DNA from: a virus
Lineage: Duplodnaviria > Heunggongvirae > Uroviricota > Caudoviricetes
DNA length: 64,000 bases
IMG/VR virus record: IMGVR_UViG_2925891887_000001
Strand: one strand, 5' to 3'
In this document: positions 4,238-41,928 of the stretch, one piece after another
Layout: every line of letters starts with the position of its first letter
How positions within the stretch are numbered: position 1 is the stretch's first letter
Made by a program: the position numbers and the translations under genes
Notes under the pieces: model-generated
What the model was told of the DNA's origin: nothing
Seen by the model: only the letters and a program-made list of their open reading frames with translations
Database searches by the model: none

Positions 4238-4244
4238 CAAGGGA

Positions 4245-12126: not shown

Positions 12127-12143
12127 ACAAGGATTTTTTGAAC

Positions 12144-15100
12144 ATGGAACAGTTCAAGAAGAAAAAGCTACCGCTGTTTATTGCCGGTGCGGGTGGTAAA
12201 AAAAGCAGCAAAAGCTCTAGTCGTACACCGGTTGAAGCCGACGATACCGTAAATTCTCGTGCAATGGCCGCTATCCTCGATCTTCTTGGGGAAGGGGTAA
12301 TTGGCGGCTTAGTAAATGGCGCAAGATCTATTTTTATCGACGATCTGCCGATTGTAAATGAAGACGGTTCCTCCAACTTCAGCGGAATCACATGGGATTT
12401 TCGCGACGGTTCACAAGACCAGACTCCAATGTCTGGCTTTGATTTCGTTGAAACGCCTAAATCCGTCAATATCCAGTTAAAAAAAACACATTATGTAACG
12501 GTTTCAATCGATAACGATGAAGCTGATCGGGTTCGTGTCATCATGAAGTTTCCTTCTTTGCGAAGCATAGATAAAAAAACTGGTGACACGAACGGTACGA
12601 CTGTTGAGTACAAGTTCCAGATAGCAAATGGCGACTCAACATTTGTAGATGTGGTCGCGGAAGGTGAAAAAAGCGTTGGCATTAAGCTAACAGCAAAGAA
12701 GACCGGCGTTTATTACCGTAGCTACGAGCTGAAGCTGCCTAAGCCTGGACGCGCATACAAGGTTCGTGTAGTCCGTATTACCGATGATAACAGTAGCCAG
12801 TATCTCTATAACGATACATGGGTGGATTCAATCGGGGAAATTGTCGATACACCGATGAACTATCCAAACTCTGTTTTGGTTGGATTGAAGGTAAACTCTG
12901 AGCAATTCGGCAGCACCATGCCATCTCGCTCTTATCTGGTGCGTGGCCTAAAAATTCGAGTACCTTCAAACTATAACGAGTCCAGTAACACTTACGCTGG
13001 GGTATGGGATGGCACTTTTAAGCTGTTGTCTTCTTCGAACCCCGCGTGGATTCTCTTTGATTTGCTGACCAATGCTCGATATGGCCTTGGTCAGTATGTG
13101 TCGGAATCTATGATTGACCTTGGCCAGTTGTACCAGATTGGTCGATATTGTGACGAAGAGGTCGATGATGGCTTTGGTGGCAAAGAGAAACGCTTTGCAA
13201 TCAATACGCAGATCACCAGTCGACAGGACGCATACCGGCTAATTCAGGATATTGCCGGAGCATTCCGCGGCATGGTGTTTTGGGCTGGTGGGATGGTTAA
13301 CATCATGCAGGATAGCCCATCAGATCCGGTAATGATGTTTACCAACTCTAACGTCAAAGATGGATTGTTTACCTATAAAGGTTCTGCGCGTAAAGATCGC
13401 CCATCCGTTGCGCTCGTAACCTACAACAACAAGGAGGACGGTTATAAGCAAAACATCGAGTACGTCGAAGATCAGGACGCAATGCGCCGTTATGGTGAGC
13501 GTAAAACAGAAGTCGTAGCATTTGGCTGTACAAGCCGAGGGCAGGCTCACCGAGTTGGTTTGTGGCTTTTATATACCGCCAGAATGGAGTCGGATGTAAT
13601 TACATTTACTGCCGGCTTAGACGCGTCATTTCTGATGCCTGGTGAAACCGTTCTGATTCAGAACAAATATCGCGCAGGCAAACGTAACTCAGGTCGAATT
13701 GTGGCGTTTACCAAAAACAGCGTCACACTCGATGCGCCTGTGTCGTTAGCCAAAGGCGGCTGCTTTATTCGAATACTGAATCAGGAAGGCAAAATCGTTG
13801 AACGCGATGTTCTTGAAACTGGCGAAAATATAACAAAAGTTACGTTTTCAAAAGCCCTGTCTTCGGCTGAAACGCCTGTTTTGAACGGCGTCTGGACTAT
13901 TACAGAACCAGACCTCGAACCTATGCGCGTTCGCATCGTTAACATCGCGCAGGGGGAAACGCCGGGTAGCTTTGACATCACCGCTGTTGAGAACAATCCG
14001 TCTAAATATGAGGCAATCGACAATGGTGCAACGCTGATCCCACAGAATACGACGGTATTGGACCCAACTTACTCCAAGCCATCTAATCTGCAAATCACTG
14101 AAGGGACTTATCTCTCAAGCCCGGGCAACCTGTCAGTAAAACTGACTGCAACATGGGAAGGGAAATCTCCAGAGTATTGGATCAGTTGGCGACGTTCTGA
14201 TGAAAACAATGTATCGAACTGGCAATCGGCGCGTGTAACCGAAGAGCAATACGAAATCGTTAATGTCGCGGAGAATGGACGCTACGACTTCCAGCTGTAT
14301 GCGGTTTCATTCAACGGTAAAAAAACAGAGATTATCAGTACCGTTTATCAGGTGTTGGGCACAATGACACCGCCGGATGCCCCAACGTCATTAACGGCCG
14401 TTGGAGACTATCGTAATGTGATACTGAATTGGGTTAATCCAGATTCGGTAGACCTTGATCACATTAATGTTTACGCATCCCAGACCAACAATCTGGATAC
14501 GGCGAAACTGATCGCAGAGTCTGCAAGCACCACCTTTACACATGCTGGTCTTGGGGATAGCGAAACGTGGTATTACTGGGTTCGAGCATCGAACAAGCGA
14601 GGTATGTTAAGTCCTCCGAACTCAAACTTGGGTACAGAGGCGACAACTCGCGATGTACTGTCGTTCCTGACTGGCAAAATTACATCTTCCGAGCTTGGTC
14701 AGGCTCTGCTTGAGGACATCAACAGCAAAGCCTCTCAAGAAGCAGTTGACGAGTTAAATGAGCATATCAACCAGAGCGTCGAATCTTTGGAGGGGGCGGT
14801 AAACGACGTTAAGGAAGATATAGCTGAATTAGATAAGCAGTTCAGCGATAACCTCGCGGATTTTGAAATAAAATTCAACGAGCGTAGCGATGCTTTGGAG
14901 AACGCACAAACCGAGCTTAAAGGTGAGGTTTCGGCAACGATCGACAAGGTCAATGAAGCGTTTGAAAAAATTGATGCTACTGATGCTGCAATTGTTGAAA
15001 TCGAAAACACCGTATCTGAACACGATAAAGCTCTCGCTAATACAGTCGAGGCAATAAAGGCTGCAAGAGATGAAGCGGCGGCTCTTATTGCTAAGGAAAG

Positions 15101-16871
15101 CGAGGCTCGTGTTGAAGGCGATGCTGCAAACGCTAAACAACTGGAAGTGTTGCAGTCAACGGTAGAGGAAAGCTCCGCTGCCGTTGAAGAAATGAAAAAG
15201 ACGGTTGCAGAGGTCGATCGTGCCAGTGCAGAACTGACTACGAACATTGAAGCGTTAGCTAAAACAAATATTGACCTGGCTCTTCGTCAAGATGAAGACC
15301 AGCACAAGCAGATGGTCAATAACGCGAAGATCGCAACAACACAGAAAACCTTTGCTGATGATATGTCCGCAATGGCCACGAAGGTTGAGGAAATTCGCGT
15401 AGAAATTGGCGAAGACATTAAGGCCAGTATTCTGGAAGAGTCCACCGCTCGTGCCGATGGCGATGAAGCGTTGGCAAAGCGTGTCACTCAGCTGCAATCT
15501 AAGTTTGAAGGAGATATCAGCGCGGCGATTAGTACAGAGCAGGAGGCTCGTACATCTGCCGATGAAGCTCTGACGACACAAATCACTCAGCTTGAGTCGA
15601 AAGTAAGCAACGATATCGTCGCAGCTATTAAGGAAGAGCAAGAAGCCCGAGCAACGGAAGATTCGGCTCTGGCAAGCCAGATCACCCAACTTCAGGCAAA
15701 AGTTGATGATGATATTTCTGCTGCAATACGCAGTGAGCAGGAGGCCCGAGCAAGCGGGGACTCTGCGTTAGCCAAACAAATAAACCAGCTTCAGTCAAAG
15801 GTTGACGGTGATATATCCGCTGCCATCACTCAGGAGCAGGAGGCCAGAGCAAGTGCTGACCAGGCGCTCTCACGAGAAATTAACAGCCTGCGAGCACAAA
15901 CCGGAACTGATATTGCCGCAGCGGTTGCTGTAGAGACAAAAGCAAGGACTGATGCCGATAGTGCATTGTCTACCCAGATTACGTCTCTTACAGCAAAAGC
16001 TAATGATCTCAAGGCGTCTCTTGCCAGAGAAACAACGGCTCGTGCAGATGGTGATACCGCTTTAACAAAAGAGGTTTCAAGTTTAAAAGCACAGACAGCG
16101 AAAGATATTAGTGCGGCCGTTGCAGTTGAAACGCAGGCTCGAACTGATGCTGACTCGGCGTTGTCGTCTCAGATCACCAAGCTGACCTCTCAATACAAAG
16201 AGGATATTAAAGCGGCTGTAGCAACCGAAACGAAAACGCGTACAGAGCAAGATGCTGCATTGGCGACTCAAATCACAAACTTAGAGTCTCAAACGGCAGC
16301 CAACATTTCCGCGGCGGTCACAACTGAAACGAAAGCGAGAACGCAGGCAGATAATGCTCTGAGTGGGCGAATCGATACTCTGAAAGCAGAGGTGAATGGA
16401 AATACCGCGACAATTCAACAGCAGGCAACAGCTATTGCTGATACCAACAAAAAAGTGTCAACCGCGTGGACGTTGAAAATGGAGACTTCAACGAGCGGAG
16501 GGCAGAAGTATGTTGCCGGTATTGCGCTTGGTATTGACACCACTGGGCTATCTCAGTTTTTGGTTCAGGCGGACAGGTTTGGTTTGGTCAACTCTGTTAA
16601 CGGGAAGATCACAACGCCATTTGTTATCGAAAACAGTATCGCCTATATGAATGGAGCGTATATCAAGGATGGCACAATCACCAATGCAAAAGTAGGCGAT
16701 CTGCAATCTACCAATTTTGTTAGCGGTAGATCTGGATGGCGGTTCGGCAAAAATGGAACGCTTGAGATCAACGGTAATAGCGGCGGCAATGGGCGATTGG
16801 TTATAAATGGTCAGCGGATTGACGTTTATGACGATAACAACGTCCTACGAGTAAGAATTGGCCGTCTGTGA
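12144..16871 (+). CDS. tail tip/host specificity protein J-like with long coiled-coil repeat shaft
   Basis: about 1575 aa; N-terminal region with gpJ-like features, then about 12 in-frame 31-32 aa repeats, C-terminal distal domain. Confidence 0.8.
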   Translation: MEQFKKKKLPLFIAGAGGKKSSKSSSRTPVEADDTVNSRAMAAILDLLGEGVIGGLVNGARSIFIDDLPIVNEDGSSNFSGITWDFRDGSQDQTPMSGFDFVETPKSVNIQLKKTHYVTVSIDNDEADRVRVIMKFPSLRSIDKKTGDTNGTTVEYKFQIANGDSTFVDVVAEGEKSVGIKLTAKKTGVYYRSYELKLPKPGRAYKVRVVRITDDNSSQYLYNDTWVDSIGEIVDTPMNYPNSVLVGLKVNSEQFGSTMPSRSYLVRGLKIRVPSNYNESSNTYAGVWDGTFKLLSSSNPAWILFDLLTNARYGLGQYVSESMIDLGQLYQIGRYCDEEVDDGFGGKEKRFAINTQITSRQDAYRLIQDIAGAFRGMVFWAGGMVNIMQDSPSDPVMMFTNSNVKDGLFTYKGSARKDRPSVALVTYNNKEDGYKQNIEYVEDQDAMRRYGERKTEVVAFGCTSRGQAHRVGLWLLYTARMESDVITFTAGLDASFLMPGETVLIQNKYRAGKRNSGRIVAFTKNSVTLDAPVSLAKGGCFIRILNQEGKIVERDVLETGENITKVTFSKALSSAETPVLNGVWTITEPDLEPMRVRIVNIAQGETPGSFDITAVENNPSKYEAIDNGATLIPQNTTVLDPTYSKPSNLQITEGTYLSSPGNLSVKLTATWEGKSPEYWISWRRSDENNVSNWQSARVTEEQYEIVNVAENGRYDFQLYAVSFNGKKTEIISTVYQVLGTMTPPDAPTSLTAVGDYRNVILNWVNPDSVDLDHINVYASQTNNLDTAKLIAESASTTFTHAGLGDSETWYYWVRASNKRGMLSPPNSNLGTEATTRDVLSFLTGKITSSELGQALLEDINSKASQEAVDELNEHINQSVESLEGAVNDVKEDIAELDKQFSDNLADFEIKFNERSDALENAQTELKGEVSATIDKVNEAFEKIDATDAAIVEIENTVSEHDKALANTVEAIKAARDEAAALIAKESEARVEGDAANAKQLEVLQSTVEESSAAVEEMKKTVAEVDRASAELTTNIEALAKTNIDLALRQDEDQHKQMVNNAKIATTQKTFADDMSAMATKVEEIRVEIGEDIKASILEESTARADGDEALAKRVTQLQSKFEGDISAAISTEQEARTSADEALTTQITQLESKVSNDIVAAIKEEQEARATEDSALASQITQLQAKVDDDISAAIRSEQEARASGDSALAKQINQLQSKVDGDISAAITQEQEARASADQALSREINSLRAQTGTDIAAAVAVETKARTDADSALSTQITSLTAKANDLKASLARETTARADGDTALTKEVSSLKAQTAKDISAAVAVETQARTDADSALSSQITKLTSQYKEDIKAAVATETKTRTEQDAALATQITNLESQTAANISAAVTTETKARTQADNALSGRIDTLKAEVNGNTATIQQQATAIADTNKKVSTAWTLKMETSTSGGQKYVAGIALGIDTTGLSQFLVQADRFGLVNSVNGKITTPFVIENSIAYMNGAYIKDGTITNAKVGDLQSTNFVSGRSGWRFGKNGTLEINGNSGGNGRLVINGQRIDVYDDNNVLRVRIGRL
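15440..16390 (+). repeat. in-frame tandem repeat region (about 12 x 31-32 aa units, EQEAR..D.AL..QI.QL.SKV..DISAAI) within the J-like gene
   Basis: Periodic repeat visible in the translation; nucleotide copies are diverged. Confidence 0.6.
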
Positions 16872-26569: not shown

Positions 26570-28276
26570 ATGGAATCGATAGAAGTATTTTTAAAAAATT
26601 TTTTGGACTCAGATCATCGGGTTGCTGTCATAAAAGGAAATTGGGGAGTAGGTAAAACGCATTATTGGAATAGCTTTTATACTAAACATTCTAAAAAATT
26701 AGATTTTAATGCATATTCATATGTTTCTTTGTTTGGAATAAATTCTATTGGAGACATTAAAAAAGCTCTTTATCATTGTGCCACACCAATTAATGAAAAG
26801 AAATATAAAGAACTGATTTTATCTGAAACGGATCGAACTATGATTCGTTATAGAAATGGGTTTTGGGGATGGTTGAAATACAACTCCTTGTCAAAATTTA
26901 TAATACATTTTGGAAAGAACGATTTTTTTGGGTTCAAAACTGATAATCTGCTGTCATCTCTTGAGTATAAATTTGTTAATAATTATTTGGTTTGCATTGA
27001 TGATATTGAACGAAAAGGTAGTGCGCTAGAAATTAAAGAGATTATGGGGGTAATTGATGAGTTGGCAAGAAGAAAAAATTGCAAGGTTGTTCTAATATTA
27101 AATGAAGATAACTTACATGAAGAAACTGCACAACAACAGTTTTTAGAGTATAGAGAAAAAATAATTGATGTGGAAATAAAATACGATCCCACGCCTGAGA
27201 AAAACTTAAGAAAAGTTTTTTATGAGACTGACCCTGATTTTCTTTTGTTAAAAAACCTAGCAAATGATTTAAACATCAAAAACATTAGAATATTAAATAA
27301 AATAAAATCATCTCTAGTTATATTTAGAGATGTGCTAAAGTTAGCAGAGGATAAGGTTAGAGAAAGTTTTATTAATAGATTGGTCTTATTTTCAGTGGTT
27401 TACTATTTTGGTGTTCCTAGCGTTGATTATGCTTCATTTAAGGAGTCAATCAAAAATATACATGCATTCGACTATATGTTAGATGATAAAGATGAAAAGG
27501 AAGAAGTTAACTCTGTATATTCATTTGTTAATAGCCTTGATGTTATTTATGAACGAGCAGAAAGTGCTTTCGATGATGATATAGATTTTTACCTTAAGAA
27601 CGGTTATGTTTCTTCTGAAAGCAATATTCTAAATATAATAAAAGAAAAAAATGAACAATATAGAGATAATAGGGTTTTATGTGAGGTTTATAAAATTTGG
27701 GATGTTTTTAGAAACTCTTTTAAAGATAATGAATCAGAGTTTATTTTTCAAATTGAGCGCGTAATTAACGATAGTCTGTTGCGTATACCAATTGGACAGT
27801 TCGTAGGTTTAATAAATGTCCTAATTAAATTGGATAGAGATTGTAATAATATTATAGAGGCATATGCAGATGCTTTTGTTAATAAAGACAATGCGTATGC
27901 TACATTTAATTCTTTGCGAGTAGAGATCTTCGGAAATGAAGAATTAGGTTTCAGAATTGAAAAAAAATTGAAAGATAGAAATCCAGATGACTATAACTTA
28001 GATAAAATTATAAAAAAAATAGCTGGTGGAAGATTTAACCATAGTGATGTGAATATTCTTAACAGTTTTTCTAAAGATGATTACGTAAACTGGATATTAT
28101 CCTGTGATCAGGATGCTTTGAATTTAGTAGAAGAGACTATGCTCAAGTTCAAGGGTATGCAACACCCGACAGACGAACAGAAGAGCATCACTGATAAAGC
28201 AATAGAAGCTTTGGAGGAAGTTGCTTCAAAATCAACACTTAATAAGCTGCGTGTTAATAAAATACTCAATCATTAA
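26570..28276 (+). CDS. KAP-family-like P-loop NTPase, strongly AT-rich cargo gene
   Basis: Walker A in KAP style (GNWGVGKTHYW), Walker B (LVCIDDIER); codon usage and base composition differ sharply from neighbours. Confidence 0.6.
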   Translation: MESIEVFLKNFLDSDHRVAVIKGNWGVGKTHYWNSFYTKHSKKLDFNAYSYVSLFGINSIGDIKKALYHCATPINEKKYKELILSETDRTMIRYRNGFWGWLKYNSLSKFIIHFGKNDFFGFKTDNLLSSLEYKFVNNYLVCIDDIERKGSALEIKEIMGVIDELARRKNCKVVLILNEDNLHEETAQQQFLEYREKIIDVEIKYDPTPEKNLRKVFYETDPDFLLLKNLANDLNIKNIRILNKIKSSLVIFRDVLKLAEDKVRESFINRLVLFSVVYYFGVPSVDYASFKESIKNIHAFDYMLDDKDEKEEVNSVYSFVNSLDVIYERAESAFDDDIDFYLKNGYVSSESNILNIIKEKNEQYRDNRVLCEVYKIWDVFRNSFKDNESEFIFQIERVINDSLLRIPIGQFVGLINVLIKLDRDCNNIIEAYADAFVNKDNAYATFNSLRVEIFGNEELGFRIEKKLKDRNPDDYNLDKIIKKIAGGRFNHSDVNILNSFSKDDYVNWILSCDQDALNLVEETMLKFKGMQHPTDEQKSITDKAIEALEEVASKSTLNKLRVNKILNH

Positions 28277-29241: not shown

Positions 29242-30582
29242 ATGACCGAACTTTGCCATACAGGACGCGGGCTGTCCGAAGAGTTTGATGAAGATTTCCA
29301 GAACAGACTGACGGCATATTTTTGTCGTGATCACGAGTTTCTTACTCGTGCGGGAGATCTGGTTGTGCCTAGCCAATTTGCCAATGCGGCCAATGCCATA
29401 TTGGTTAATATGGTTTCGGGCTATTACCGTATGTACAAGAGCGCGCCCTCTTCATCTGCAATTCTGGATATGCTTAAGCGTGCGAAACGCGATAAGACTA
29501 TCCGTGAGGAACTATTCGCCGATGTTGTTGTTGCGTTTAAGCGCATCCTTGCAGAAAAATTGTCCGATACCTCGTACATGGTTGACCAGGTATCAACCTT
29601 CGCAAAAAGCGTAGCGTTTGATGATGCTCTGATTAAGGCTGCTGAACTGAAAGAGAAGGGCGACTTTCAGGGGGCGATGGCAATCATGGCCAAGGTTCAG
29701 CAGATTGGATCGAACGAAGCGACCGGAATCTATGACTACTACACCTCCGCAAGTGAGCGATTGAAAGCGCGTGAATATGAGGCTTCAGAGGAGTATGTAC
29801 CAAACAGTATTACAACTGGACTCCCTCTTCTCGATAGGTTGCTGTACCAAAAAGGCTGGGCAAAGCGCGAAATGGTGCTCTTCATGGGGTTCGCTAAATC
29901 CGGTAAATCGACCGCAATGGGTGAGTTTTCCATAAACGCAACGCTTGCTGGCTACAATGTTCTGTATCTCTCGCTGGAGGTTCACACCAACATTTTGTCC
30001 GACCGTTTTGATGCAAGATTGTCGGAGACGGAAATGTCCAAGTTGGTGGAACGGCGCGATGAAGTTCATCGTAAGTTGGCAGAGTTGGGAGCCTCTAAGG
30101 GGATTGGTAGTTTGTGGGTTGTTGAGCGTCCGTCAGGAAGTATGTCACCGGCAGATCTGGACCGTATGCTTAACAGCATGAAAGCCAACGGCATGGTGCC
30201 TGACATGGTTGTTGTCGACTACGCAGATTTGATGCGTGCCAGTTATGACCTTCGTGATGATCGCGCCAACATTCGTAGTATCTACACCGATTTACGTGCT
30301 CTTTATGACAAGCATAACGTTGCTGGGATCACGGCATCGCAGACAAACCGTGAAGGTGGCGCGTCAGAAGTTGCCACAATGATGCACGCTGCCGACAACA
30401 TCGAAAAAGTACGTATTGCTGACCTGGTAATAACGATCAACAAAACCGAAGAAGAAGAAGCGAAAGGAGAGGCTCGTCTCTACTTTGCCGGTTCACGTAA
30501 CCAGCAGGGAGGGATCAGCATTCGCGTTAAACAAAACCTCGAACAAATGCGCTTCATTGAGCGAATCTTAGACGTTACCTAA
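29242..30582 (+). CDS. DnaB-like replicative helicase
   Basis: Walker A (GFAKSGKST), DnaB-type Walker B (VVVDYADLM), about 446 aa. Confidence 0.75.
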   Translation: MTELCHTGRGLSEEFDEDFQNRLTAYFCRDHEFLTRAGDLVVPSQFANAANAILVNMVSGYYRMYKSAPSSSAILDMLKRAKRDKTIREELFADVVVAFKRILAEKLSDTSYMVDQVSTFAKSVAFDDALIKAAELKEKGDFQGAMAIMAKVQQIGSNEATGIYDYYTSASERLKAREYEASEEYVPNSITTGLPLLDRLLYQKGWAKREMVLFMGFAKSGKSTAMGEFSINATLAGYNVLYLSLEVHTNILSDRFDARLSETEMSKLVERRDEVHRKLAELGASKGIGSLWVVERPSGSMSPADLDRMLNSMKANGMVPDMVVVDYADLMRASYDLRDDRANIRSIYTDLRALYDKHNVAGITASQTNREGGASEVATMMHAADNIEKVRIADLVITINKTEEEEAKGEARLYFAGSRNQQGGISIRVKQNLEQMRFIERILDVT

Positions 30583-30591
30583 AAAATAAGC

Positions 30592-31845
30592 GTGGAGAAC
30601 ACCTCCACGCTTGATTCATTGGTGAAACAACTTTTCTTTTGCCAAACCACAAAAGAAAAACACATGAGCCTTTATGTTATATCAACATTTAGGTTGGTCA
30701 CAATATTGCCTGTTAAAAGTGGAATTATCGTGAGCGAGCTGAAAGAGCTAATTGCCGAATTAGATTTTGAACAATGGTTGGATACTGAAGGTATCGTTTA
30801 TCGACGTGGAGGCGTGAGTGCTCGCGGTCGTGAAGTGAATATCAAAGAGTGTCCGGTATGCGGCAGCTCCAACTGGAAGGTATATTTCAATCTGACCAGT
30901 GGCGTCGGCAAATGCTTCGCTGGTGATCATCCCGAAGAGATTCAGTTCAATAAGCTGGTCTTCCTCAAGCACTACAGCGGTAAATCACGACGACAGTTCG
31001 AGGAATATGTGCAGAACGCTCTTCTTTCCCAGGGGTGGACACCAAAGAAAGAAGAGCTAGTGCTTGCAAGCACAGTCGAGTTAGAGGGGCCAGTTGCACT
31101 CCCTCGTCATTACGAGCTTCCTATAGATGGCCGTCTTCCAGACTATCTGGTTGAACGAAACATATCACCTGAAATGGCAAAGTATTTTGACCTACGATAC
31201 TGCGTCGAAGGCAAGCACGCTTATGTAGATCCGTATACAGATCAGGTAAAAGGGCAGATATTCGATATGCGAATACTGATACCGGTTTACGATCTGGATG
31301 GGGTAATGAAGACATTTCAGGGACGAGACATTACCGGTACAGCAGAACGCCGCTACCTCTTTCCTATGCAGCTTCCAGCTTCAGGTAAATTTCTCTACAA
31401 CGGCCATAATGCAGTCGGCAAACAGACTGTAGTTGTCTGTGAGGGTTCGTTCGATGTTATGGGGGTCAAACGAGCTATTTTCGACGAAGAAACATTACGT
31501 GATTACGTGGAGCCAATAGGAACGTTCGGGATGCATCTATCTGGCAACACCACTCAGGATGCAGAAGATCAGTTGGGCGCGTTCCTGACGCTCAAGGCGC
31601 GTGGATTACGTAATGTGATCATGATGTGGGATAGTGAAAAGCAAGCTATACGAAACACGATGGCCGCAGCCAGGCGACTGACCAGTATTGGTCTTAATGT
31701 CAAAGTTGCGTGTTTGGGCGAGGAAGGACTCGACCCCGGCGATGCGACACCGGGGCAGATTATCAAAGCCTACTATTGCGCAAAACCTTATTCACGACAG
31801 CTTGAACTTTTAAGCAAGGTAAAAGGTATAGCAGCATTAGTTTGA
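30592..31845 (+). CDS. DNA primase (zinc ribbon plus TOPRIM)
   Basis: CPVCGSSNW...CFAGDH zinc-binding motif and TOPRIM-like acidic motifs (VVVCEGSFD); start uncertain. Confidence 0.65.
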   Translation: MENTSTLDSLVKQLFFCQTTKEKHMSLYVISTFRLVTILPVKSGIIVSELKELIAELDFEQWLDTEGIVYRRGGVSARGREVNIKECPVCGSSNWKVYFNLTSGVGKCFAGDHPEEIQFNKLVFLKHYSGKSRRQFEEYVQNALLSQGWTPKKEELVLASTVELEGPVALPRHYELPIDGRLPDYLVERNISPEMAKYFDLRYCVEGKHAYVDPYTDQVKGQIFDMRILIPVYDLDGVMKTFQGRDITGTAERRYLFPMQLPASGKFLYNGHNAVGKQTVVVCEGSFDVMGVKRAIFDEETLRDYVEPIGTFGMHLSGNTTQDAEDQLGAFLTLKARGLRNVIMMWDSEKQAIRNTMAAARRLTSIGLNVKVACLGEEGLDPGDATPGQIIKAYYCAKPYSRQLELLSKVKGIAALV

Positions 31846-33090
31846 ACCAGTATTAGTCACGTAAACATTGACCGAAAATGATTTAACTTCTGTGTTGAAG
31901 TTGTCAGTCATTACCGCGAGGTAGGCATTCTTGGTATCTCTGAATTGCTTCAGGATGATTTGAACGTTATCGGTGCAAACAAACGAGGTAGCCAGATTGC
32001 CTCCTTTCTCTGAAAAATCCTTCAAGAAGGTGCAGTCAACTTTGCCATCATTAGCGGTGAAGACGGCATCATCACCCTGCCAGGTAAATGTTGCGTTAAC
32101 GCCTTTATCAATGGATTTAGCAATAAGTCGCTGAGTGTCAGATTTGGCATTTTGCTGTTTTGAAGGCGAACGGAACGTACCTTTTGCTTTCATTGCAGCA
32201 ACGTTTTCGCAGCCCGTTTCGTCATCTTTATCGCAAGCAGCTTGGTAAAGCTCTGATGCTTTCCGATAATCCTGTTTGACGCCCAATCCCTTAAGATACA
32301 TGTAACCAAGGTGGTTCATGGCATAATCATTTCCTAAGCTGATTGCTTGTTCTAAAAGACTTCTGGCCTTCGAATAGTCTTTTTTTATACCTTCTCCATG
32401 CATCAACTTGTATCCAAGCGCGCTCATGGCGTTATTATTTCCTAATTCAGCTGCTTTCAAGTACCACTTAATTGCCTCTTTATTGTTGCGCTTAACAGCA
32501 ACACCATCGTCGTACATAGAGCCTAGCCCATACATTCCTGCGGCATTTCCACTATCCGCAGCCTTTTTATAAGATTTAAATGCTTTCTTGTAATCTTTCG
32601 GAACTCCCTTACCGTATTGATATAAATATCCCATATAGGCAAGCGAAGGTATATCACCAGCTTCTACTGCTAGTTTGTGATATTTTAAAGCAGCTTCTGG
32701 GTCCTCCTTTCCAGTCCAACCTCGTTCGTATATAACGGCAAGATTATGGTAAGCACTGCCGTTGCGAGCATTTCCTGCTAGTTTGTAGTACTCAACGGCC
32801 TTATTTAGATCTTTATCTACTCCCTTCCCAATTGTGTACATAACCCCAAGCGCATAATATGCTACTTTATCTCCCTTTTCTGCGGCGAGATCGATCCACT
32901 TCTTGGCCTCTACTAAATCCTCATCAAAGCCATTAGCCCCATCCAAATAATTTGTCCCTAACGCACTTTGTGCTGTGGTATCTCCTGCGGTGGCGGCGTC
33001 GATCAGCGTTTGTTTATTATCTGCGTTAACGTATCCAGGGCCGAAAAGCAAAGCTAATGCCAGCAACGATGAAGGTTTTATGAGTTTCAT
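31837..33090 (-). CDS. secreted Sel1-like repeat (TPR-like) protein
   Basis: Signal peptide then multiple about 36-aa repeats of Sel1 type (A..YYKLAA..G...A...LG.MY..G.GV..D); only large minus-strand gene in the replication block. Confidence 0.7.
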   Translation of the reverse strand: MKLIKPSSLLALALLFGPGYVNADNKQTLIDAATAGDTTAQSALGTNYLDGANGFDEDLVEAKKWIDLAAEKGDKVAYYALGVMYTIGKGVDKDLNKAVEYYKLAGNARNGSAYHNLAVIYERGWTGKEDPEAALKYHKLAVEAGDIPSLAYMGYLYQYGKGVPKDYKKAFKSYKKAADSGNAAGMYGLGSMYDDGVAVKRNNKEAIKWYLKAAELGNNNAMSALGYKLMHGEGIKKDYSKARSLLEQAISLGNDYAMNHLGYMYLKGLGVKQDYRKASELYQAACDKDDETGCENVAAMKAKGTFRSPSKQQNAKSDTQRLIAKSIDKGVNATFTWQGDDAVFTANDGKVDCTFLKDFSEKGGNLATSFVCTDNVQIILKQFRDTKNAYLAVMTDNFNTEVKSFSVNVYVTNTGSN

Positions 33091-33317
33091 ATTTTATGTT
33101 CTGTTGATATAGGATGAACAGTTTAGACGCGGCAAGCGTCAAGTGTGCGAAAAGGGTACTTAAATTTAGTTAATCTGTCAGCTTTGATAATTTATGAACT
33201 GTAAAGTTGATGTGATATTAATCACTGATGGAAATAATGAGCTATGGAATTATTGTGACACGGCTCGTGTTTTGGTTAACTAATACCTACGATAAATATA
33301 AATAAAGGGAAGTCAAA

Positions 33318-33731
33318 ATGAGCAAAAAGAAGTTGATTTTAACAGGTGCTTTATTGTCGTTGTTTGCATTAGTTGGGTGTAAGCCTACAGACGAGAAGGC
33401 TATTACTCTGGGCCAACAGGCAATTGCGGATGATATGAAAGATCCCACGTCGGTGATGTTTAGGAAAGATAAGTTTGTCAGGACTGATCATGATGATGGG
33501 AGTGTGACAGGCTTTGTGTGTGGTGAATTAAACGCCAAAAATGGCTTTGGTGCATACGTGGGCTATCACTCATATGTTGTTGAACTCGAAATGAAGCCAA
33601 AGGGCATGTTTTCAAAAGGGGTGGTATACAAAATCCTATCGAAGTCGTTGGCACCTAATGATCCTCATGATTTACAGCGTTATAAGCAGGTCTACAGAAA
33701 GATGTGCAACAGTGAGGCTGTAGCTCATTAA
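33318..33731 (+). CDS. lipoprotein, function unknown
   Basis: Signal peptide with lipobox LVGC; AGGGA RBS. Confidence 0.55.
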   Translation: MSKKKLILTGALLSLFALVGCKPTDEKAITLGQQAIADDMKDPTSVMFRKDKFVRTDHDDGSVTGFVCGELNAKNGFGAYVGYHSYVVELEMKPKGMFSKGVVYKILSKSLAPNDPHDLQRYKQVYRKMCNSEAVAH

Positions 33732-33856
33732 AGGTGAATGCTGGGCTGAGGATATGCCCGGCATCTTAGTATAAAGAACTATTGCACCTAAAATGATAAG
33801 TAGATACATACTTAAGTTTTTGTAAGAATACTTTCATCCGTTAGCTAGGAGTTGGT

Positions 33857-34639
33857 ATGAAAGAAGAAATTAAGAGATTAGCCTGCAACATCATTGATAA
33901 AACTGGTTTAGAAATCAGCGAGAGCAATCGGCTAGACATCATTGAAAAAGCCGTCAATACGGCAATGGATCATATCGCCACTCGTTTGGTCGAGATCCCT
34001 CTACCGGGGCTACCTTATCTGAAGGTTAAGTTGTGCGTATGGGACGAACCTGCACATGCACGACGTTCTGCATTAGTTGTTTTTGTACGCAAAGAAAACT
34101 TACGAACTCTAAAAGTGCAGGTTGGGGCGTGGTTTGATGGCAGAGTCATCTATACAGATACCATTATCTGTCCTCCAGGTGACGAACATATTGAAGCCGT
34201 TATTCGAGAATCAATTCGAGCTATGCGTAGTTTAGCTTTGCTGGAAGACAAGCAAAACTTTGAAGATTACTTGCTGTCGGTAAAAGCTGAACCAACATTG
34301 TCTCTGAAAGCCGATTTCGTCACCCCGACAAATCTGTTGGAGGTTTTGATTAATAAAGGGGCTAATGATGCTGTAAACCTAATCAGGGAGAGCGAATATT
34401 CGACTCTTTGGGACATGTGCAAAAGCCAGTTGGATCTTGTGCATATCATTGTTGATGCGGGTAAGGCGTGTGATGGCGTAATGGCGGAATTTGCTGGGAA
34501 GATGGTCAGGATTGCTAACGAATTACCGATGATAGAGCAAGAGGCCAAATCATACGCCACCAATCATGTCACAGAGCTTCTTGCCCCCTATCGCTTAGAA
34601 AGCGATCAGCGCAAGATGATTAGCTGGGGAAGTTGGTAA
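33857..34639 (+). CDS. hypothetical protein
   Basis: 260-aa ORF with AGGAG RBS. Confidence 0.55.
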   Translation: MKEEIKRLACNIIDKTGLEISESNRLDIIEKAVNTAMDHIATRLVEIPLPGLPYLKVKLCVWDEPAHARRSALVVFVRKENLRTLKVQVGAWFDGRVIYTDTIICPPGDEHIEAVIRESIRAMRSLALLEDKQNFEDYLLSVKAEPTLSLKADFVTPTNLLEVLINKGANDAVNLIRESEYSTLWDMCKSQLDLVHIIVDAGKACDGVMAEFAGKMVRIANELPMIEQEAKSYATNHVTELLAPYRLESDQRKMISWGSW

Positions 34640-34706: not shown

Positions 34707-35177
34707 GTGAAAGCTGATTTGTCAAAAGTCCCTTCTATTTCAGGAAATAACGGTTATTCACTTCGTTGTGAGGAAGTAAAGATAAACGGTGAGTCGGCAT
34801 ATTGCAGCTACTCCGTTTGCCAGCACACCATTCTTGCCTTCAAAGAAAACCGTCTTCCTCGAACGTCTTTCCAGTCGTGCGCAACCGCTATTAAAGCAGG
34901 CAAATGCAAGGCGTTAAAAATGATGGTTGAAGAGATTCGTAAAGGAGAATCTCTGTATTTCGAAGATATGACCGCACTCATTAAGGAGGTTGAAGAACGG
35001 AATAAACAAGCCAGAACTATAAAACGAAAACGTGACAGTGTAACGATTAATAGCATGGTTAAGAAGAGCGCCACATCACAAACAGCGATCACTGACGTGT
35101 ATGCGGCGTTGATTGAAGAAACAACAAAAGAAACACATGAGCAAATCGATCAACATATGGAGGCAAAACAACAATGA
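34707..35177 (+). CDS. hypothetical protein
   Basis: 156-aa ORF; start uncertain; stop overlaps ligase start. Confidence 0.45.
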   Translation: MKADLSKVPSISGNNGYSLRCEEVKINGESAYCSYSVCQHTILAFKENRLPRTSFQSCATAIKAGKCKALKMMVEEIRKGESLYFEDMTALIKEVEERNKQARTIKRKRDSVTINSMVKKSATSQTAITDVYAALIEETTKETHEQIDQHMEAKQQ

Positions 35178-36496
35178 AAAAGTTGATCGCACTTAAGCAT
35201 AAGCTGGACGAAATGAAAGCTATAGGAACCAATGCAAAAAAAGAGGCATTGGCCAACATGGATGACTTTGAACAAAGCATGGTTTCATTGATGCTCAACC
35301 CTTTCATCCGTTTTGGGGTAAAGAAATACAAAGTGGCAGAGCCGCTTAGTGAGTCCATCCCAAGTGACGTAAAAGCCATTGATGTACTGAATAAGCTGGC
35401 CTCTCGCGAGCTAACGGGGAACGCAGCAATAGCAGCTGTTGAGTCTATCGTGGCGTCAATGTGCGCCGATGGGCAGGACGTGTTCCGTCGTTTCCTCTTA
35501 AAAGACCCGAAAGCAGGTGTTGGGATTAGCCTATGCAACAAGGTTTTTGAAAATCCCATTCCGAAATTCGAGGTGCAGCTGGCGTCACCGTATAAAGAAA
35601 AAGGCGACAAATACCCCTTCAAGCCAAATCCTAAAGCAAAATGGCCGATGATTGGCAGTCTTAAGCTCGATGGTTTGCGAGTAATTTGCGAGGTTATTGT
35701 TGACGAGGAAGAGGTTAACTTCCTTTCTCGTACTGGTAATCCAATCACGTCTCTCGATCACCTAAAGCCAGCAATGCTCGAATTAGGCAAACTTTCAGGC
35801 CACAAACACATCTTCTTCGATGGTGAAGGAACAGCCGGTTCATTTAACCAGTCCGTATCTGCATTGCGCAAAAAGAACGTGCAGGCAATTGGCGCTATTT
35901 ATCATGTTTTCGACTTCTTCCTACCGGAATGGCGAGCACAGGCTAAATCCAAAGAGTATGCAAAGACAGGTATGAAGCTGAAAGAGCGCCTGGCTATTCT
36001 CGTGGCGTTGTTCAAAAACGATCGCAGTGAAGGCTACACACAAGACATTCACCTGCATCCGTTCTATATCATCCATAGCCACGAAGACTTCATCGAACGC
36101 TTCATGAAACGCCTGGACGATAATGAAGAAGGGGAGATGGGCAAAGATCCGAACTCTGTTTACGAGTTTAAACGTACCCGCAGCTGGTGGAAGTTAAAAG
36201 ACGAAGATTCAGAAGATGGTGAAATTATCGATTTTGAGCCGGGCGATCCGGACTCTGGTTTTGCCAACACGCTTGGAAAAATTGTTATTCGTCTTGAAAA
36301 CGGCGTCATCGTTCGTGCGAGCGGTATTAAGCATAAATATCTGGACGAGATCTGGAACAACAAAGAGAAGTACCGTGGTCGTATTGTTGAGGTTCATTGT
36401 CACGAGAAAACACCGGATGGCAGCTTACGCCACCCCCGACTGAAATGGCCGCGTTGCTTACGCGATACAGAAGATCGAATCGGAGATAAAGAATGA
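35174..36496 (+). CDS. ATP-dependent DNA ligase
   Basis: Adenylation motif I KxDG (SLKLDGLRV) and ligase-size ORF. Confidence 0.8.
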   Translation: MKKLIALKHKLDEMKAIGTNAKKEALANMDDFEQSMVSLMLNPFIRFGVKKYKVAEPLSESIPSDVKAIDVLNKLASRELTGNAAIAAVESIVASMCADGQDVFRRFLLKDPKAGVGISLCNKVFENPIPKFEVQLASPYKEKGDKYPFKPNPKAKWPMIGSLKLDGLRVICEVIVDEEEVNFLSRTGNPITSLDHLKPAMLELGKLSGHKHIFFDGEGTAGSFNQSVSALRKKNVQAIGAIYHVFDFFLPEWRAQAKSKEYAKTGMKLKERLAILVALFKNDRSEGYTQDIHLHPFYIIHSHEDFIERFMKRLDDNEEGEMGKDPNSVYEFKRTRSWWKLKDEDSEDGEIIDFEPGDPDSGFANTLGKIVIRLENGVIVRASGIKHKYLDEIWNNKEKYRGRIVEVHCHEKTPDGSLRHPRLKWPRCLRDTEDRIGDKE

Positions 36497-38931: not shown

Positions 38932-40194
38932 TTACTTTGCATAGTCGCCCAATTTTAATATTTCGCGCTTATATTCATTAACCATGCTACTGGATTCAGT
39001 ATAAATTCGATTTAAAAGATTATCGTTATCTTTATTTTCATTTATCTTAATTAGTGCTAATTTATATTCATAGTCATCAAATGCCACAATTAAATGGTGG
39101 CCTGGGATTATATCTTCGTCACTCTTAAAGTATATATCTTCAAGTATGTAATCTAGTTGATTAGATTTTCTTTTCTCGATGTAATCTTCAGCCATAGCTA
39201 TTACATCATTCCTGTCATTTAACCTGTTTTTTTCGGAAGGCACATCTTCGTAATGTTGCACGATTGAACAACCAATAAGGCGTGGGATGTAAACGTCAAA
39301 ATGAGTAACTCTATCATTCGCGGTTTTAAGTAGTTCCTCAAAGTAGTTTCTTACATGTAAAGGCAACTTCTCAAAGTAATCATTAATTATAGGAGAACAA
39401 GGAGTTTTATAATTCATAAGAACCGACGGTACGAGCTTTGGGTGTCGAAACATCCAGTCCCTTTTAACGTCCGATGGAACATAATAACTTTTAATGATAT
39501 TATCAAAATAATTTATCATTCGAGATTTGAATATTTTGTTGAATCTAAGGTTTATGAATGTATCCAGATAAGGCATATTTGAATAAGCATCATCAAAAAA
39601 TATTTCATCATTGAAAAAATCATATTTATTCAATAAACAACACAGTTTTTCCGAATTAATATGTTCACAATAATCGATTTTTAATCCAAAGATAGCAATG
39701 ATCAACTTCATCTGAGGTGGGATTTTAAAAATTAATTGTGACACATACGCTCTTTTTTCCTTGAGACATTCCCCATCAATATAAAATGAACCATCCACAT
39801 ACTCAAATATATTAATAATATGCTTCACATACTGTATTACCTCATGCTGTCTTACCAATGGATAATATAGTCTATGTAACTCATCGCTGTTTAAATTAAT
39901 TTTGTGTTTATCGATAATTTGTTTTGCAAGAAGACATAACTCATCATGTTGATTTAATAAGGAATCAAACCATTGTTTAAATGCACTCTTTCGCATTTCG
40001 AACAATGATTCAGTTGTTAATTGAAGGGCTGAAAAAGCTGCTTTTGCACTTTTTCTCGCTTCGTAGGCATTCCATGCTGTTGCTATAAAAGCAAATGCTG
40101 TAGCCAATGTTCCAACAGTTTGACCATTTAAAACAACCCAATCCCAAAAAATGACGGTGAGCAGTAGTATAATAATGAAAATTAAAAAAGGCAT
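38932..40194 (-). CDS. AT-rich membrane-anchored protein of unknown function (cargo gene)
   Basis: 420-aa ORF, two N-terminal hydrophobic helices, strongly AT-rich, adjacent to tRNAs and an integrase. Confidence 0.55.
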   Translation of the reverse strand: MPFLIFIIILLLTVIFWDWVVLNGQTVGTLATAFAFIATAWNAYEARKSAKAAFSALQLTTESLFEMRKSAFKQWFDSLLNQHDELCLLAKQIIDKHKINLNSDELHRLYYPLVRQHEVIQYVKHIINIFEYVDGSFYIDGECLKEKRAYVSQLIFKIPPQMKLIIAIFGLKIDYCEHINSEKLCCLLNKYDFFNDEIFFDDAYSNMPYLDTFINLRFNKIFKSRMINYFDNIIKSYYVPSDVKRDWMFRHPKLVPSVLMNYKTPCSPIINDYFEKLPLHVRNYFEELLKTANDRVTHFDVYIPRLIGCSIVQHYEDVPSEKNRLNDRNDVIAMAEDYIEKRKSNQLDYILEDIYFKSDEDIIPGHHLIVAFDDYEYKLALIKINENKDNDNLLNRIYTESSSMVNEYKREILKLGDYAK

Positions 40195-40824: not shown

Positions 40825-41928
40825 ATGAAAAATAGCTTTGACAGAGCACGCGCTGCGGAGAACACCTCAAAAGAGGCGATTGAGTATCTCGAAAGAGCAT
40901 CTCAAATGCAGGCCGTTATGATCTCGCAGGTCAGCAATGACATGAGATTCTCGGACGCATTCATGTTATTCACTCGCTTATCTCTGCTGATAACAAGACG
41001 TCGGCCAGAGATCGCTGTTCATTGTATTTTGATACATGTTTTGCCGCACATTGCCGATGTAAAAGTAAGTGACATTAATAGGTTCATGGTGAACCAACTG
41101 GTCAACCCACTAATACTGGATGGCAAAATTGTTATGGGCCGCCGCGTTTTCTCTCTGATGAAGCAGTTCCTTAGCTGGTGCGCCTTCCAGGGGATGATAG
41201 ACGTGTCACCGTTAAACGATATGTCACTAAACAAAGTTGCCGGTGGCGCAAAGCCCACACCTCGCGAGCGGAAGCTGACCGACGCAGAGGTATGGGTGTT
41301 CTGGAATATATGGGACTACTTCAATGTGTGCGCTGGTACAAAATGGGCGGCCAGGCTGTGTCTTGTATCCGCAAGACGACCTGACGAAGTACTGCGGGCT
41401 AAAAAAAGTGAGTTCAATCTTAAGCGTGGGGTTTGGAATCAAGGCAAGAGGAACAAATCTGCCCGTGAGCATTCGCTGCCTTTAAGCACATTAATGCGCA
41501 CATGTATTGAAGAGTTGTTCGAATACGGTAAAGGCAGCCAGTGGCTCGTGCCTTCGAATAAAAAAATCGGGAAAGACCTTCCTATGTCTAAAGTGGCAAT
41601 AGCCCAGGCATTACGTCGTATCCTGGAACGACCAGAACTGATGGAGCTTGAGCCATTTACACCCCGAGACTTGCGCCGTACTGCGCGTAGTTACTTCCCA
41701 GCATTAGGCATAAGCCAGGAGGTCTCACGCAAAATCATGAACCACAGTCTTGAGGGGATAGATCGAGTCTACGACCGGCACGATTATATGGACGAGATGC
41801 GAGACGCCTTAGAAAGTTTCTCGACGTACATCGCATCAATCGTAGAGCAACCGGATTTAGACGAAATTGACCACAAATTCAAGGGAGATCGTCTATCAAC
41901 AGAGCTTATTCGTGTAAATTTTTCATAG
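40825..41928 (+). CDS. tyrosine recombinase/integrase
   Basis: C-terminal catalytic signature (RDLRRTARSY ... HS..G.DRVYDRHDY); 367 aa. Confidence 0.75.
   Translation: MKNSFDRARAAENTSKEAIEYLERASQMQAVMISQVSNDMRFSDAFMLFTRLSLLITRRRPEIAVHCILIHVLPHIADVKVSDINRFMVNQLVNPLILDGKIVMGRRVFSLMKQFLSWCAFQGMIDVSPLNDMSLNKVAGGAKPTPRERKLTDAEVWVFWNIWDYFNVCAGTKWAARLCLVSARRPDEVLRAKKSEFNLKRGVWNQGKRNKSAREHSLPLSTLMRTCIEELFEYGKGSQWLVPSNKKIGKDLPMSKVAIAQALRRILERPELMELEPFTPRDLRRTARSYFPALGISQEVSRKIMNHSLEGIDRVYDRHDYMDEMRDALESFSTYIASIVEQPDLDEIDHKFKGDRLSTELIRVNFS

Follow-up and report, generated by a model that had tools for sequence, protein, structure and literature searches.

The analyzed window, a stretch of 64,000 nucleotides, is an SSU5-like Escherichia coli phage-plasmid and matches NZ_LR882992.1 with 100% identity across a 3-kb query. 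Phage-plasmids of the SSU5 type frequently occur in E. coli, Enterobacter, Citrobacter, Salmonella, and Klebsiella from clinical and animal sources. Surveillance concentrates on the resistance genes that they carry, and to our knowledge their other cargo is almost unstudied. At the locus described here (Table 1), a gene for a Sel1-repeat protein (in the following, the Sel1 gene), which is labeled “tetratricopeptide repeat protein” in identical plasmids, lies on the (-) strand between (+) genes, with the primase gene (30592–31845) on one side and a lipoprotein gene, two hypothetical genes, and a ligase gene on the other. It is therefore oriented against the surrounding operon, as the original prediction had stated, and the GC skew changes its sign across the gene (-0.18 vs. 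positive flanks). The overlap with the primase gene is annotated identically, with 9 bp, in the Enterobacter plasmid, and in the E. coli loci, the positions at which the tblastn matches end are consistent with it. The search for a canonical terminator 3' of the Sel1 gene yielded none, the sole candidate being a weak stem at 31678–31663.

Table 1. Features of the Sel1 locus, in coordinates of the window.
Feature	Position	Strand	Remarks
Accessory block (Sel1 gene, divergent intergenic region, lipoprotein gene)	31821..33795		1975 bp; blastn breakpoints
Tail-to-tail overlap, Sel1 gene/primase gene	31837..31845		9 bp, convergent
Sel1-repeat protein CDS, complete	31837..33090	-	ATG start, 417 aa, stop codon 31837–31839; ORF list
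C-terminal 8-stranded beta-barrel (modeled), residues 320–417	31840..32133	-	conserved C353 and C372
Low-complexity linker, residues 304–319	32134..32181	-	pLDDT <50
Sel1-like solenoid (predicted), residues 24–303	32182..33021	-	N-cap helix, 7 repeats, C-cap helix with C286-x7-C294; Pfam, AF2
Signal peptide (predicted), residues 1–23, MKLIKPSSLLALALLFGPGYVNA	33022..33090	-	predicted cleavage after VNA; n/h/c regions, -3/-1 rule by inspection
Promoter-like element CTGACA-N17-TACCCT	33153..33181	-	-35 33176–33181, -10 33153–33158; conserved upstream motif
Putative lipoprotein, 137 aa, MSKKKLILTGALLSLFALVGC...	33318..33731	+	divergent; lipobox LVGC by inspection; PHROG 2320, function unassigned

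The promoter-like element upstream of the Sel1 gene had been missed by a generic promoter scan because its weak -10 (TACCCT) matches at only 3/6 positions. The motif occurs once in the window compared to 0.01 expected occurrences, and in the form CTGACA-N17-TAMYCT it precedes the ATG by 88–107 nt in 25 of the 29 full-length ortholog loci, where it is kept even in lineages with saturated dS. This conservation suggests that the element would act as a promoter, whereby the predicted 5' UTR would comprise about 56 nt (33091–33146). There is no obvious Shine-Dalgarno sequence upstream of the Sel1 ATG, and a search of the accessory block for structured RNA gave no Rfam match at E≤1.

The product aligns at full length to PHROG 8741, a phage family whose function is unassigned (E=1.8e-199), whereby the profile of 380 positions aligns in two stretches since the window allele is one repeat longer. 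The about seven Sel1 repeats that had been claimed were recovered by Pfam as seven stretches of Sel1 (PF08238; E=5.4e-56, 185.5 bits vs. a cut-off of 30.7) as well as by AlphaFold2 (AF2), which models 16 helices between residues 23 and 303 with a pLDDT >90, that is, an N-cap, seven helix pairs, and a C-cap. The repeats are thus predicted to be antiparallel helix pairs that stack as a solenoid. The claimed signal peptide, too, was supported by rule-based inspection, which points to the Sec type: the N-terminus (MKLIKPSSLLALALLFGPGYVNA, followed by DN) has an n-region with two Lys, a hydrophobic core with a mean Kyte-Doolittle value of 2.4 over 10 residues, and V-N-A at positions -3 to -1. In all 13 distinct ortholog N-termini, the n/h/c layout and the small residue at -1 occur at the same alignment position although the sequences differ, and residues 1–23 of the AF2 model have a pLDDT of 31, with the helices starting at residue 23. 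The mature protein contains four Cys residues, all of them invariant, with one pair in the last repeat/cap and one in the C-terminal domain. Neither a lipobox nor an autotransporter was found in the window allele, so that no route past the periplasm is indicated by the sequence; the protein is probably exported to this compartment. In the linker between the two folded parts, dN/dS is the highest in the gene (0.3–0.65), and the DNA identity to other alleles falls away near 32145.

A distinct C-terminal domain had been postulated with about 110 aa, and we found one of about 98 aa. When residues ~320–417 were modeled alone, eight beta strands were obtained with a pLDDT of 86, whereas the barrel is poor in the full-length AF2 model (pLDDT <56), which makes the separate domain model the usable one. 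The domain thus models confidently as a real, separate, and soluble eight-stranded beta-barrel, and it is the best-conserved part of the whole protein. Pfam searches with 11 barrel sequences (E≤10) and a PDB sequence search with the barrel gave no match. The fold search that had been proposed for this domain was run with Foldseek and found nothing significant in the PDB; among viral structures, a 106-aa protein of Phapecoctavirus matches best (TM 0.71, E=2e-5). Tuntematon gp76 (120 aa), which is related to the latter protein, has a signal peptide and Cys residues at the same positions, and hhalign gives a marginal homology of the window barrel with the barrel of the lytic phage (88%). In an exhaustive HMMER search among 1.84 billion proteins, the barrel family comprises only 9 clusters, to which two word-index searches added no further relatives. 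Barrels of the OmpX/NspA/PagL type have membrane-spanning strands, a size of about 150 aa, and an aromatic C-terminal residue. An outer-membrane anchor of this kind was ruled out by the domain length, the strand length, and the C-terminus. The barrel is a previously undescribed domain without family assignment.

Comparison with related elements delimits the block that contains the Sel1 gene. Phage Cyrano has 39 bp in place of the 1975 bp, and in its annotation the primase gene is followed 75 bp further on by a homolog of the gene at 33857 of the window. The same indel is seen in comparison to CMS-2020a and PhiR41_1, two close relatives that also lack the block, and in SSU5 this site is occupied by an unrelated antisense gene. 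The barrel is encoded on 90 of 361 related PLSDB plasmids, always adjoining primase, and the Sel1 gene occurs in 60 of 5426 complete E. coli genomes, in every case on a plasmid; the gene is hence present in some close relatives and cleanly absent from others. In CP088502.1, a deletion has left the last 47 codons as a remnant. Gut, urine, or blood was the source of many carrier isolates, which belong to E. coli, Enterobacter, and Citrobacter. The divergent lipoprotein gene accompanies the 417- and 381-aa alleles of E. coli and has homologs in the temperate phages SEN4/SEN5, Fraca, and LMessi; it is a second moron in the block. As it is missing from the loci of the 345-aa and Enterobacter alleles, it was ruled out as an obligate partner of the Sel1 protein.

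Orthologs of the Sel1 gene were also found elsewhere, among others in genera from plants and the environment, e.g., Pantoea and Leclercia. In a Leclercia prophage the ortholog follows a tail-fibre gene, and in a myovirus-like contig it lies between the tail tube and chaperone genes. In Pseudenterobacter it is situated within a disrupted cdiA, where a NERD gene and a promoter motif of its own accompany it, so that this arrangement looks like an insertion. Unrelated prophages and chromosomal islands carry it without a primase neighbor. Judged by this gene order, the orthologs are placed like morons in other prophages. In about 30 loci, the Sel1 gene adjoins no effector, toxin, or phage-exclusion partner gene, there are no vgrG, tle, or pld neighbors in the phage-plasmid, prophage, and chromosomal loci examined, and PADLOC returned noise-level matches only, with no meaningful defense system. 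The suggestion of an independently regulated cargo gene gains comparative support from the 1975-bp indel, the unrelated gene in SSU5, the orthologs in apparent moron positions, and the conserved promoter-like motif. Going by these sequence comparisons, the Sel1 gene is a real accessory cargo gene, one of the recurrent cargo genes of SSU5-type elements that is common to other temperate phages.

The Sel1 array occurs in alleles with 5, 6, or 7 repeats, corresponding to proteins of 345, 381, and 417 aa, and repeats 3–7 constitute its hypervariable, recombining portion. Across all folded parts, dN/dS is about 0.05–0.3, from which it follows that the gene is functional and under purifying selection. 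Positive selection on the array was not detected, with a dN/dS of about 0.15–0.2 between 381-aa alleles. Synonymous divergence differs strongly along the gene, as dS of the barrel is 0.05–0.10 whereas repeats 3–7 are saturated. In terms of the aligned sequences, the allelic diversity is a recombination mosaic of old alleles. Intragenic DNA repeats and a DGR-like process were rejected as sources of the hypervariation, because the Sel1 repeats are dissimilar at the DNA level and the only intragenic DNA repeat is one 20-nt pair with 85% identity.

In order of sequence similarity, the best match among solved structures is EsiB (c5321, PDB 4bwr) from extraintestinal pathogenic E. coli (E=1.2e-55, residues 27–270), likewise a Sel1-like solenoid from E. 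coli. This similarity is at the level of the repeats and common to hundreds of SLR proteins; moreover, EsiB has no C-terminal beta-barrel and is encoded on the chromosome, in contrast to the phage-plasmid location of the window gene. The secreted Sel1 proteins HcpB/HcpC of Helicobacter were also matched (1ouv, E=1.7e-30; 1klx, E=8e-15). The spacing C-x7-C in the last repeat is similar to that of the Hcp disulfide, yet Hcp proteins have a Cys pair in every repeat, compared to only 1/7 repeats in the window protein, and no barrel. The label “putative beta-lactamase HcpC” of some phage records is not transferable, since the per-repeat Cys pairs are missing.

Sel1-repeat proteins are known as T6SS immunity proteins, namely Sel1E, which acts against VgrG4 in Klebsiella pneumoniae, and its template PA5087/Tli5b from Pseudomonas aeruginosa (PDB 5jkp), whose solenoids bind and neutralize the incoming toxin (PMC7108748). 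PA5087 is detectable by sequence with E=1e-6, which is weaker than EsiB. Sel1E has an extra C-terminal region whose structure is unassigned, and a barrel has not been reported for Sel1E or PA5087. T6SS Sel1 immunity genes adjoin the effector gene (vgrG, tle, or pld), whereas the window gene and its relatives do not. With regard to the barrel, the lysozyme inhibitors PliC/MliC and the T6SS immunity protein BtaiB are small eight-stranded periplasmic barrels, which stand alone without a Sel1 fusion. The window domain would likewise be a small eight-stranded periplasmic beta-barrel according to its model; the identity in structural alignments with these proteins is 5–14%. Membership in PliC/MliC was rejected, as the resemblance is one of fold only, with no Pfam (E≤10) or PDB sequence match, and the motifs that we take to be the PliC/MliC signatures are not visible in the window barrel. 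DUF4251 (PDB 4gdz, Bacteroides eggerthii) is longer (149 aa) and has no detectable relation to the barrel at the sequence level.

Classical morons and exclusion proteins are lambda bor/lom, phi80/N15 cor, T5 llp, and T4 Spackle. In a comparison drawn from general knowledge, they resemble the Sel1 gene in being single genes for exported proteins between backbone genes, with their own (here candidate) promoter and a patchy presence, and the Leclercia prophage ortholog next to tail-fibre genes agrees with this pattern. The window protein, however, has no sequence or fold relation to any of them, and the terminator of its own that would belong to the pattern was not found downstream of the gene.

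Taken together, purifying selection, the predicted export to the envelope, and the sharing across temperate phages make it probable that the Sel1 gene alters the phenotype of the lysogen, e.g., its phage susceptibility, resistance to competitors, or colonization of the host. Our preferred reading, to which we assign a probability of roughly 40%, is that it is a lysogenic-conversion moron of SSU5-type phage-plasmids encoding a periplasmic protective binder. During plasmid carriage, the gene would be transcribed from its own sigma-70-like promoter in opposition to the replication operon, and the product would be exported by Sec with removal of the signal peptide. In the periplasm it would fold with two disulfides, C286–C294 in the Sel1 cap and C353–C372 in the barrel, into two modules, a seven-repeat solenoid as a protein-binding surface, represented by deeply divergent and recombining alleles of 5–7 repeats, and the strongly conserved soluble barrel. 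Such a binder could neutralize or block an envelope-exposed protein, either a component of an incoming phage or a toxin or enzyme acting in the periplasm, so that the lysogen would be protected in an immunity- or superinfection-exclusion-like manner. We infer promoter activity, export, disulfide formation, and expression during plasmid carriage, and the protection of the lysogen most of all. The four invariant Cys residues point to a periplasmic target, as do the hosts that include Pantoea and Leclercia and the Phapecoctavirus relative of the barrel, since a strictly lytic phage would have cause to target the bacterial envelope rather than an animal host. The Sel1-repeat proteins of T6SS immunity provide a precedent. 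Several results speak against this reading, namely the missing partner genes and PADLOC matches, the marginal homology of the barrel, the undetected positive selection on the array, and a weak -10 with neither a clear Shine-Dalgarno sequence nor a terminator. In the literature, no paper mentions this Sel1 protein, and none ties SSU5-type elements to a Sel1/TPR protein.

It might also be that the protein is an animal-host interaction or colonization factor of the EsiB/LpnE/Hcp type, placed on the surface or in the medium, whose Sel1 array binds, e.g., secretory IgA and confers an advantage in the gut. EsiB, the nearest sequence match of known structure, is a secretory IgA binder that impairs the activation of neutrophils (PMC3735183), many carriers come from gut, urine, or blood, and variable repeat number together with divergent alleles is typical of surface antigens, as in the SLR family of Haemophilus (PMC4792463). 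However, dozens of unrelated SLR proteins score nearly as well as EsiB, so that this similarity is generic, and the conserved part of the window protein, the barrel, is what EsiB lacks. With orthologs in Pantoea, Leclercia, and Pseudenterobacter, distant barrel relatives in strictly lytic coliphages, and neither autotransporter nor lipobox to lead the window allele past the periplasm, we consider such a role unlikely. MerG, AlgK, MotX, and ExoR are all periplasmic Sel1 proteins. Weak partial NCBIfam matches to these four (E 1e-9 to 4e-16), the presence of AlgK and MotX among the PDB sequence matches, and a putative, loosely CpxR-type direct repeat in the spacer/-10 sequence (CTAAA-N5-GTACC) would fit a regulator or scaffold of a host envelope machine, comparable to ExoR, MotX, or AlgK, which rewires signaling, motility, or polysaccharide export. 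The NCBIfam bit scores are far below the cut-offs (MerG 60/350, AlgK 51/700, MotX 50/330, ExoR 35/450), and the protein therefore stands outside these families; in addition, deep allelic diversity of Sel1 within one host species fits a conserved housekeeping target poorly, which renders this explanation very unlikely.

The location within the replication module and the 9-bp overlap with the primase 3' end, also in the Enterobacter plasmid, could hint that the gene serves the lytic cycle of the phage itself, be it by restraining the endolysin, by chaperoning a virion or lysis protein in the periplasm, or by antisense or convergent modulation of primase; as no terminator was detected, the Sel1 transcript should run antisense into the primase gene. 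Yet the gene is missing from about three quarters of the related phage-plasmids, among them Cyrano, PhiR41_1, and SSU5, which have been isolated as phages, and replication, assembly, or lysis can therefore not depend on it. Since, furthermore, purifying selection on the coding sequence means that the protein matters and not merely the act of transcription, and since orthologs reside in unrelated prophages and chromosomal islands away from primase, we regard this role as highly improbable.

If the protective reading is true, the site downstream of primase would be a hotspot for genes that benefit the lysogen, and one could read from the Sel1 allele what an element protects against; otherwise, the product is simply another uncharacterized Sel1 protein. 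A further-reaching version, which we consider decidedly unlikely, holds that the protein represents an unrecognized two-module class of phage-borne periplasmic protection factors, with a swappable Sel1 “specificity” array and a constant barrel as “effector or anchor.” In that case, different alleles would exclude different phages or neutralize different periplasm-acting toxins, and the locus would be a polymorphic immunity determinant that is spread by phage-plasmids and prophages of Enterobacterales. As part of this two-module reading, lytic Phapecoctavirus phages may possess the barrel domain on its own as a secreted protein.

The Sel1 gene of this window, which is a portion of an E. coli SSU5-like phage-plasmid, is strongly supported as an accessory gene that encodes an exported two-module protein, has its own upstream element, is selected to stay functional and is mobile among temperate phages of Enterobacterales. 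The region 31000-34000 (3 kb) shows 100% identity to plasmid NZ_LR882992.1 and 99.9% to three further plasmid records, and it matches 361 plasmids, chiefly non-mobilisable ones of ~110 kb from Escherichia, Enterobacter, Salmonella, Citrobacter and Klebsiella. As the original prediction had stated, the gene lies within the replication block on the opposite strand; its plus-strand neighbours include the helicase, primase and ligase genes (table). It is convergent with the primase gene, whereby both overlap by 9 bp at the primase end, and the GC-skew sign inverts across it; few other non-overlapping genes are found on the minus strand of the 64-kb window.

Features of the window discussed in the text
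Feature	Position	Strand	Remark
Very long ORF	4224-8819	+	1531 aa
IS1 transposase ORF	9018-9521	-	
Very long ORF	12138-16871	+	1577 aa
KAP-family P-loop NTPase gene	26570-28276	+	568 aa
DnaB-like helicase gene	29242-30582	+	neighbour of Sel1 gene
Primase gene	30592-31845	+	neighbour of Sel1 gene
Accessory block	31821-33795		1975 bp
Sel1 gene	31837-33090	-	417 aa, ATG start
Predicted 5' UTR	33091-33146	-	
Promoter-like element	33153-33181	-	stricter pattern
Putative lipoprotein gene	33318-33731	+	137 aa
Hypothetical gene	33857-34639	+	neighbour of Sel1 gene
Hypothetical gene	34707-35177	+	neighbour of Sel1 gene
ATP-dependent DNA ligase gene	35174-36496	+	neighbour of Sel1 gene
Antisense ORF	38932-40194	-	420 aa
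Phage-integrase-family gene	40825-41928		

The gene product belongs to PHROG family 8741 (E=1.8e-199), which has no assigned function. In a rule-based inspection, its N-terminus, MKLIKPSSLLALALLFGPGYVNA followed by DN, is organised like a Sec signal peptide (n-, h- and c-regions, V-N-A at -3 to -1), and 13 distinct N-termini of orthologues, which differ in sequence, share this layout at the identical position of the alignment. Pfam detected seven Sel1 repeats (185.5 bits, E=5.4e-56). In a full-length AlphaFold2 model built on a 12-sequence alignment, residues 1-23 are disordered and residues 23-303 form 16 helices with pLDDT >90, namely seven helix pairs with one capping helix at either end (N-cap and C-cap). 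This model resolved the C-terminal ~98 residues badly; modelled separately on an 11-sequence alignment, they yielded a confident eight-stranded barrel (pLDDT 86, pTM 0.75). Thus, all elements that had been described from the sequence, i.e., a signal peptide, about seven Sel1/TPR-like repeats and a distinct C-terminal domain of about 110 aa, were found in this ORF. Four cysteines are invariant across the orthologues, two in the cap (C286, C294) and two on adjacent barrel strands (C353, C372), which fits an oxidising compartment.

The suggestion that the gene is cargo was borne out by comparison with related genomes. Matches to the phages Cyrano, CMS-2020a and PhiR41_1 are limited to the flanks, and in Cyrano 39 bp replace the 1975-bp block, so that the primase gene directly precedes the homologue of the 33857 gene. 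Besides the Sel1 gene, the block contains the putative lipoprotein gene and, between the two, a divergent AT-rich region of 227 bp. In Salmonella phage SSU5 (L003), an unrelated antisense gene, SSU5_041 (4848-5813, minus strand, 321 aa), is located exactly at the Sel1-gene site, which identifies the primase 3' junction as a hotspot for antisense accessory genes. Its product has neither a signal peptide nor a Pfam match and was called cytoplasmic. A tblastn search with the barrel found 90 plasmids (59 from Escherichia, 22 from Enterobacter, 8 from Citrobacter), whereby the barrel adjoins the primase among the matches listed, and 60 of the 5426 complete E. coli genomes carry the gene, on a plasmid in all cases and on the chromosome in none. 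In some plasmids only a deletion remnant is left, the final 47 codons directly beside the primase. The lipoprotein gene, which shares this indel with the Sel1 gene and is transcribed divergently from it, carries the lipobox LVGC and belongs to PHROG 2320. Homologues with 33-48% identity occur in the temperate phages SEN4/SEN5, Fraca, LMessi and others, and two weaker ones are annotated as SPOR or peptidoglycan-binding. The lipoprotein gene has the appearance of a further moron independent of the Sel1 gene, i.e., an accessory transcription unit inserted in the phage backbone.

When the upstream regions of the Sel1 gene were aligned, conservation was confined to two blocks of constant spacing, CTGACA and TA(A/C)(C/T)CT, which lie 17 nt apart and 88-107 nt before the ATG in the orthologue loci. 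Judged by its motifs, the element looks like a putative sigma-70 promoter with a good -35 box, optimal spacing and a weak -10 box. The window contains a single match to a stricter pattern (0.01 expected), and in 19 orthologue loci this pattern is likewise found once, upstream of the gene. In a relaxed scan, the element was present in 25 of 29 full-length orthologue loci, missing in Leclercia-type contigs and Pantoea only, and it is kept in lineages whose coding sequence is saturated at synonymous sites. A generic promoter scan of the region did not pick it up. No convincing terminator was found for the Sel1 gene, and its transcript would therefore continue antisense into the primase gene. By eye, the predicted 5' UTR contains a short hairpin (GACGC-TTGCC-GCGTC), the ATG has no evident Shine-Dalgarno sequence, and CTAAA-N5-GTACC in the spacer/-10 region bears a loose likeness to a CpxR-type direct repeat.

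Purifying selection acts on the gene. Its alleles have 5, 6 or 7 repeats and encode 345, 381 and 413-426 aa, respectively; at the DNA level the repeats are dissimilar. Among E. coli phage-plasmids with 96-100% identical flanking genes, protein identity is 92-100% in the barrel, whereas it drops to 43-63% in divergent stretches of the array. Between the window and two orthologue loci (L013 and L021), barrel dS is 0.05-0.10 and repeats 3-7 are saturated, with the identity break near 32145, inside the linker (residues 304-319). Thus, the alleles are mosaics, in which old divergent Sel1 arrays were recombined onto a common barrel-plus-primase backbone. Synonymous sites are saturated in both parts of distant orthologues, yet amino-acid changes are two to four times rarer in the barrel (pN 0.09-0.19 vs 0.27-0.40 for the array), which makes it the most constrained module. 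In the 381-aa alleles, array dN/dS is about 0.15-0.2 and only the linker is higher; positive selection left no sign at the resolution used.

Outside phage-plasmids, the gene occupies typical moron positions. It immediately follows the tail-fibre gene in a Leclercia prophage, is flanked by tail tube and tail chaperone genes in a myovirus-like viral contig, lies beside IS fragments and a primase remnant on the Escherichia whittamii chromosome and resides on a megaplasmid in Pantoea. In Pseudenterobacter it is found within a disrupted cdiA, adjoining a NERD-domain gene. There (P. timonensis, L009, 2838-4198 and 8244-10580), the orthologue, two small ORFs and the NERD-domain gene are flanked by haemagglutinin-repeat fragments and a PT-VENN pre-toxin region, which looks like a roughly 4-kb island inserted into, or recombined within, cdiA.

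The barrel gave no Pfam match at E<=10 in any of 11 family members and no sequence match in the PDB. When 1.84 billion cluster representatives were searched exhaustively with HMMER, only nine clusters were recovered, and every clear one is the C-terminus of a Sel1 protein or a fragment thereof. A fold search, proposed for this domain in the original prediction, gave as best viral match in BFVD a 106-aa protein of Phapecoctavirus Mt1B1_P17 (TM 0.71, E=2e-5), with a Serratia phage "putative lysozyme inhibitor" also within the top four; Foldseek against the PDB gave no significant match. Gp76 of Escherichia phage tuntematon (L002, 2405-2767), present in related Phapecoctavirus genomes, has 120 aa, a signal peptide and two cysteines aligned with those of the barrel, to which it shows 28% identity over 77 aa and an hhalign probability of 88%. 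Thus, distant stand-alone secreted barrels probably exist in strictly lytic coliphages.

Sel1 solenoids are protein-binding modules. Periplasmic ones include T6SS immunity proteins such as Sel1E, which acts against VgrG4 and for which PA5087 served as structural template (PMC7108748). We tentatively favour, at a probability of roughly 40%, a protective, immunity- or exclusion-like role on a bacterial-envelope target, and hold the exported moron with much greater confidence than its protective function. Fold neighbours of the barrel including periplasmic inhibitors and an immunity protein, the distant relatives in lytic phages, the plant and environmental host genera, the copy beside tail-fibre genes and the co-circulating divergent alleles all point in this direction. 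The main rival is a host-interaction factor like EsiB, which among solved structures is the closest by sequence (E=1.2e-55; PMC3735183); however, this similarity is generic, and EsiB has no barrel. The protein might also be a regulator or scaffold resembling ExoR, MotX or AlgK, but its scores for these families all fall far below the cut-offs. Since the gene is missing from most relatives, isolated infectious phages among them, it is unlikely to serve the phage's own cycle.

The protein is a member of the Sel1-repeat superfamily, and RefSeq already labels it "tetratricopeptide repeat protein" or "sel1 repeat family protein". Membership in Hcp, EsiB, Tli5/Sel1E, PliC/MliC, MerG, AlgK, MotX and ExoR was rejected by the features tested. 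A literature search found no paper on the Sel1-barrel protein; new are the fusion of a Sel1 array to an unclassified, narrowly distributed barrel, the modular structure of the alleles, the conserved promoter-like element and the recognition of the gene as a recurrent moron of several phage types.

Elsewhere in the window, the KAP NTPase gene, with a weak nSTAND3 match, is likely to be one more accessory or defence-like gene subject to swapping. It sits in a strongly AT-rich segment (27001-28000, GC 0.29) that separates a ParA-like gene from the replication genes, and its place in Cyrano is taken by a RelE/ParE toxin and a hypothetical gene. The second long antisense ORF, very AT-rich (GC about 0.30), without Pfam match and adjoining the integrase-family gene, is probably further cargo. 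The IS1 transposase ORF is located between the two very long ORFs.
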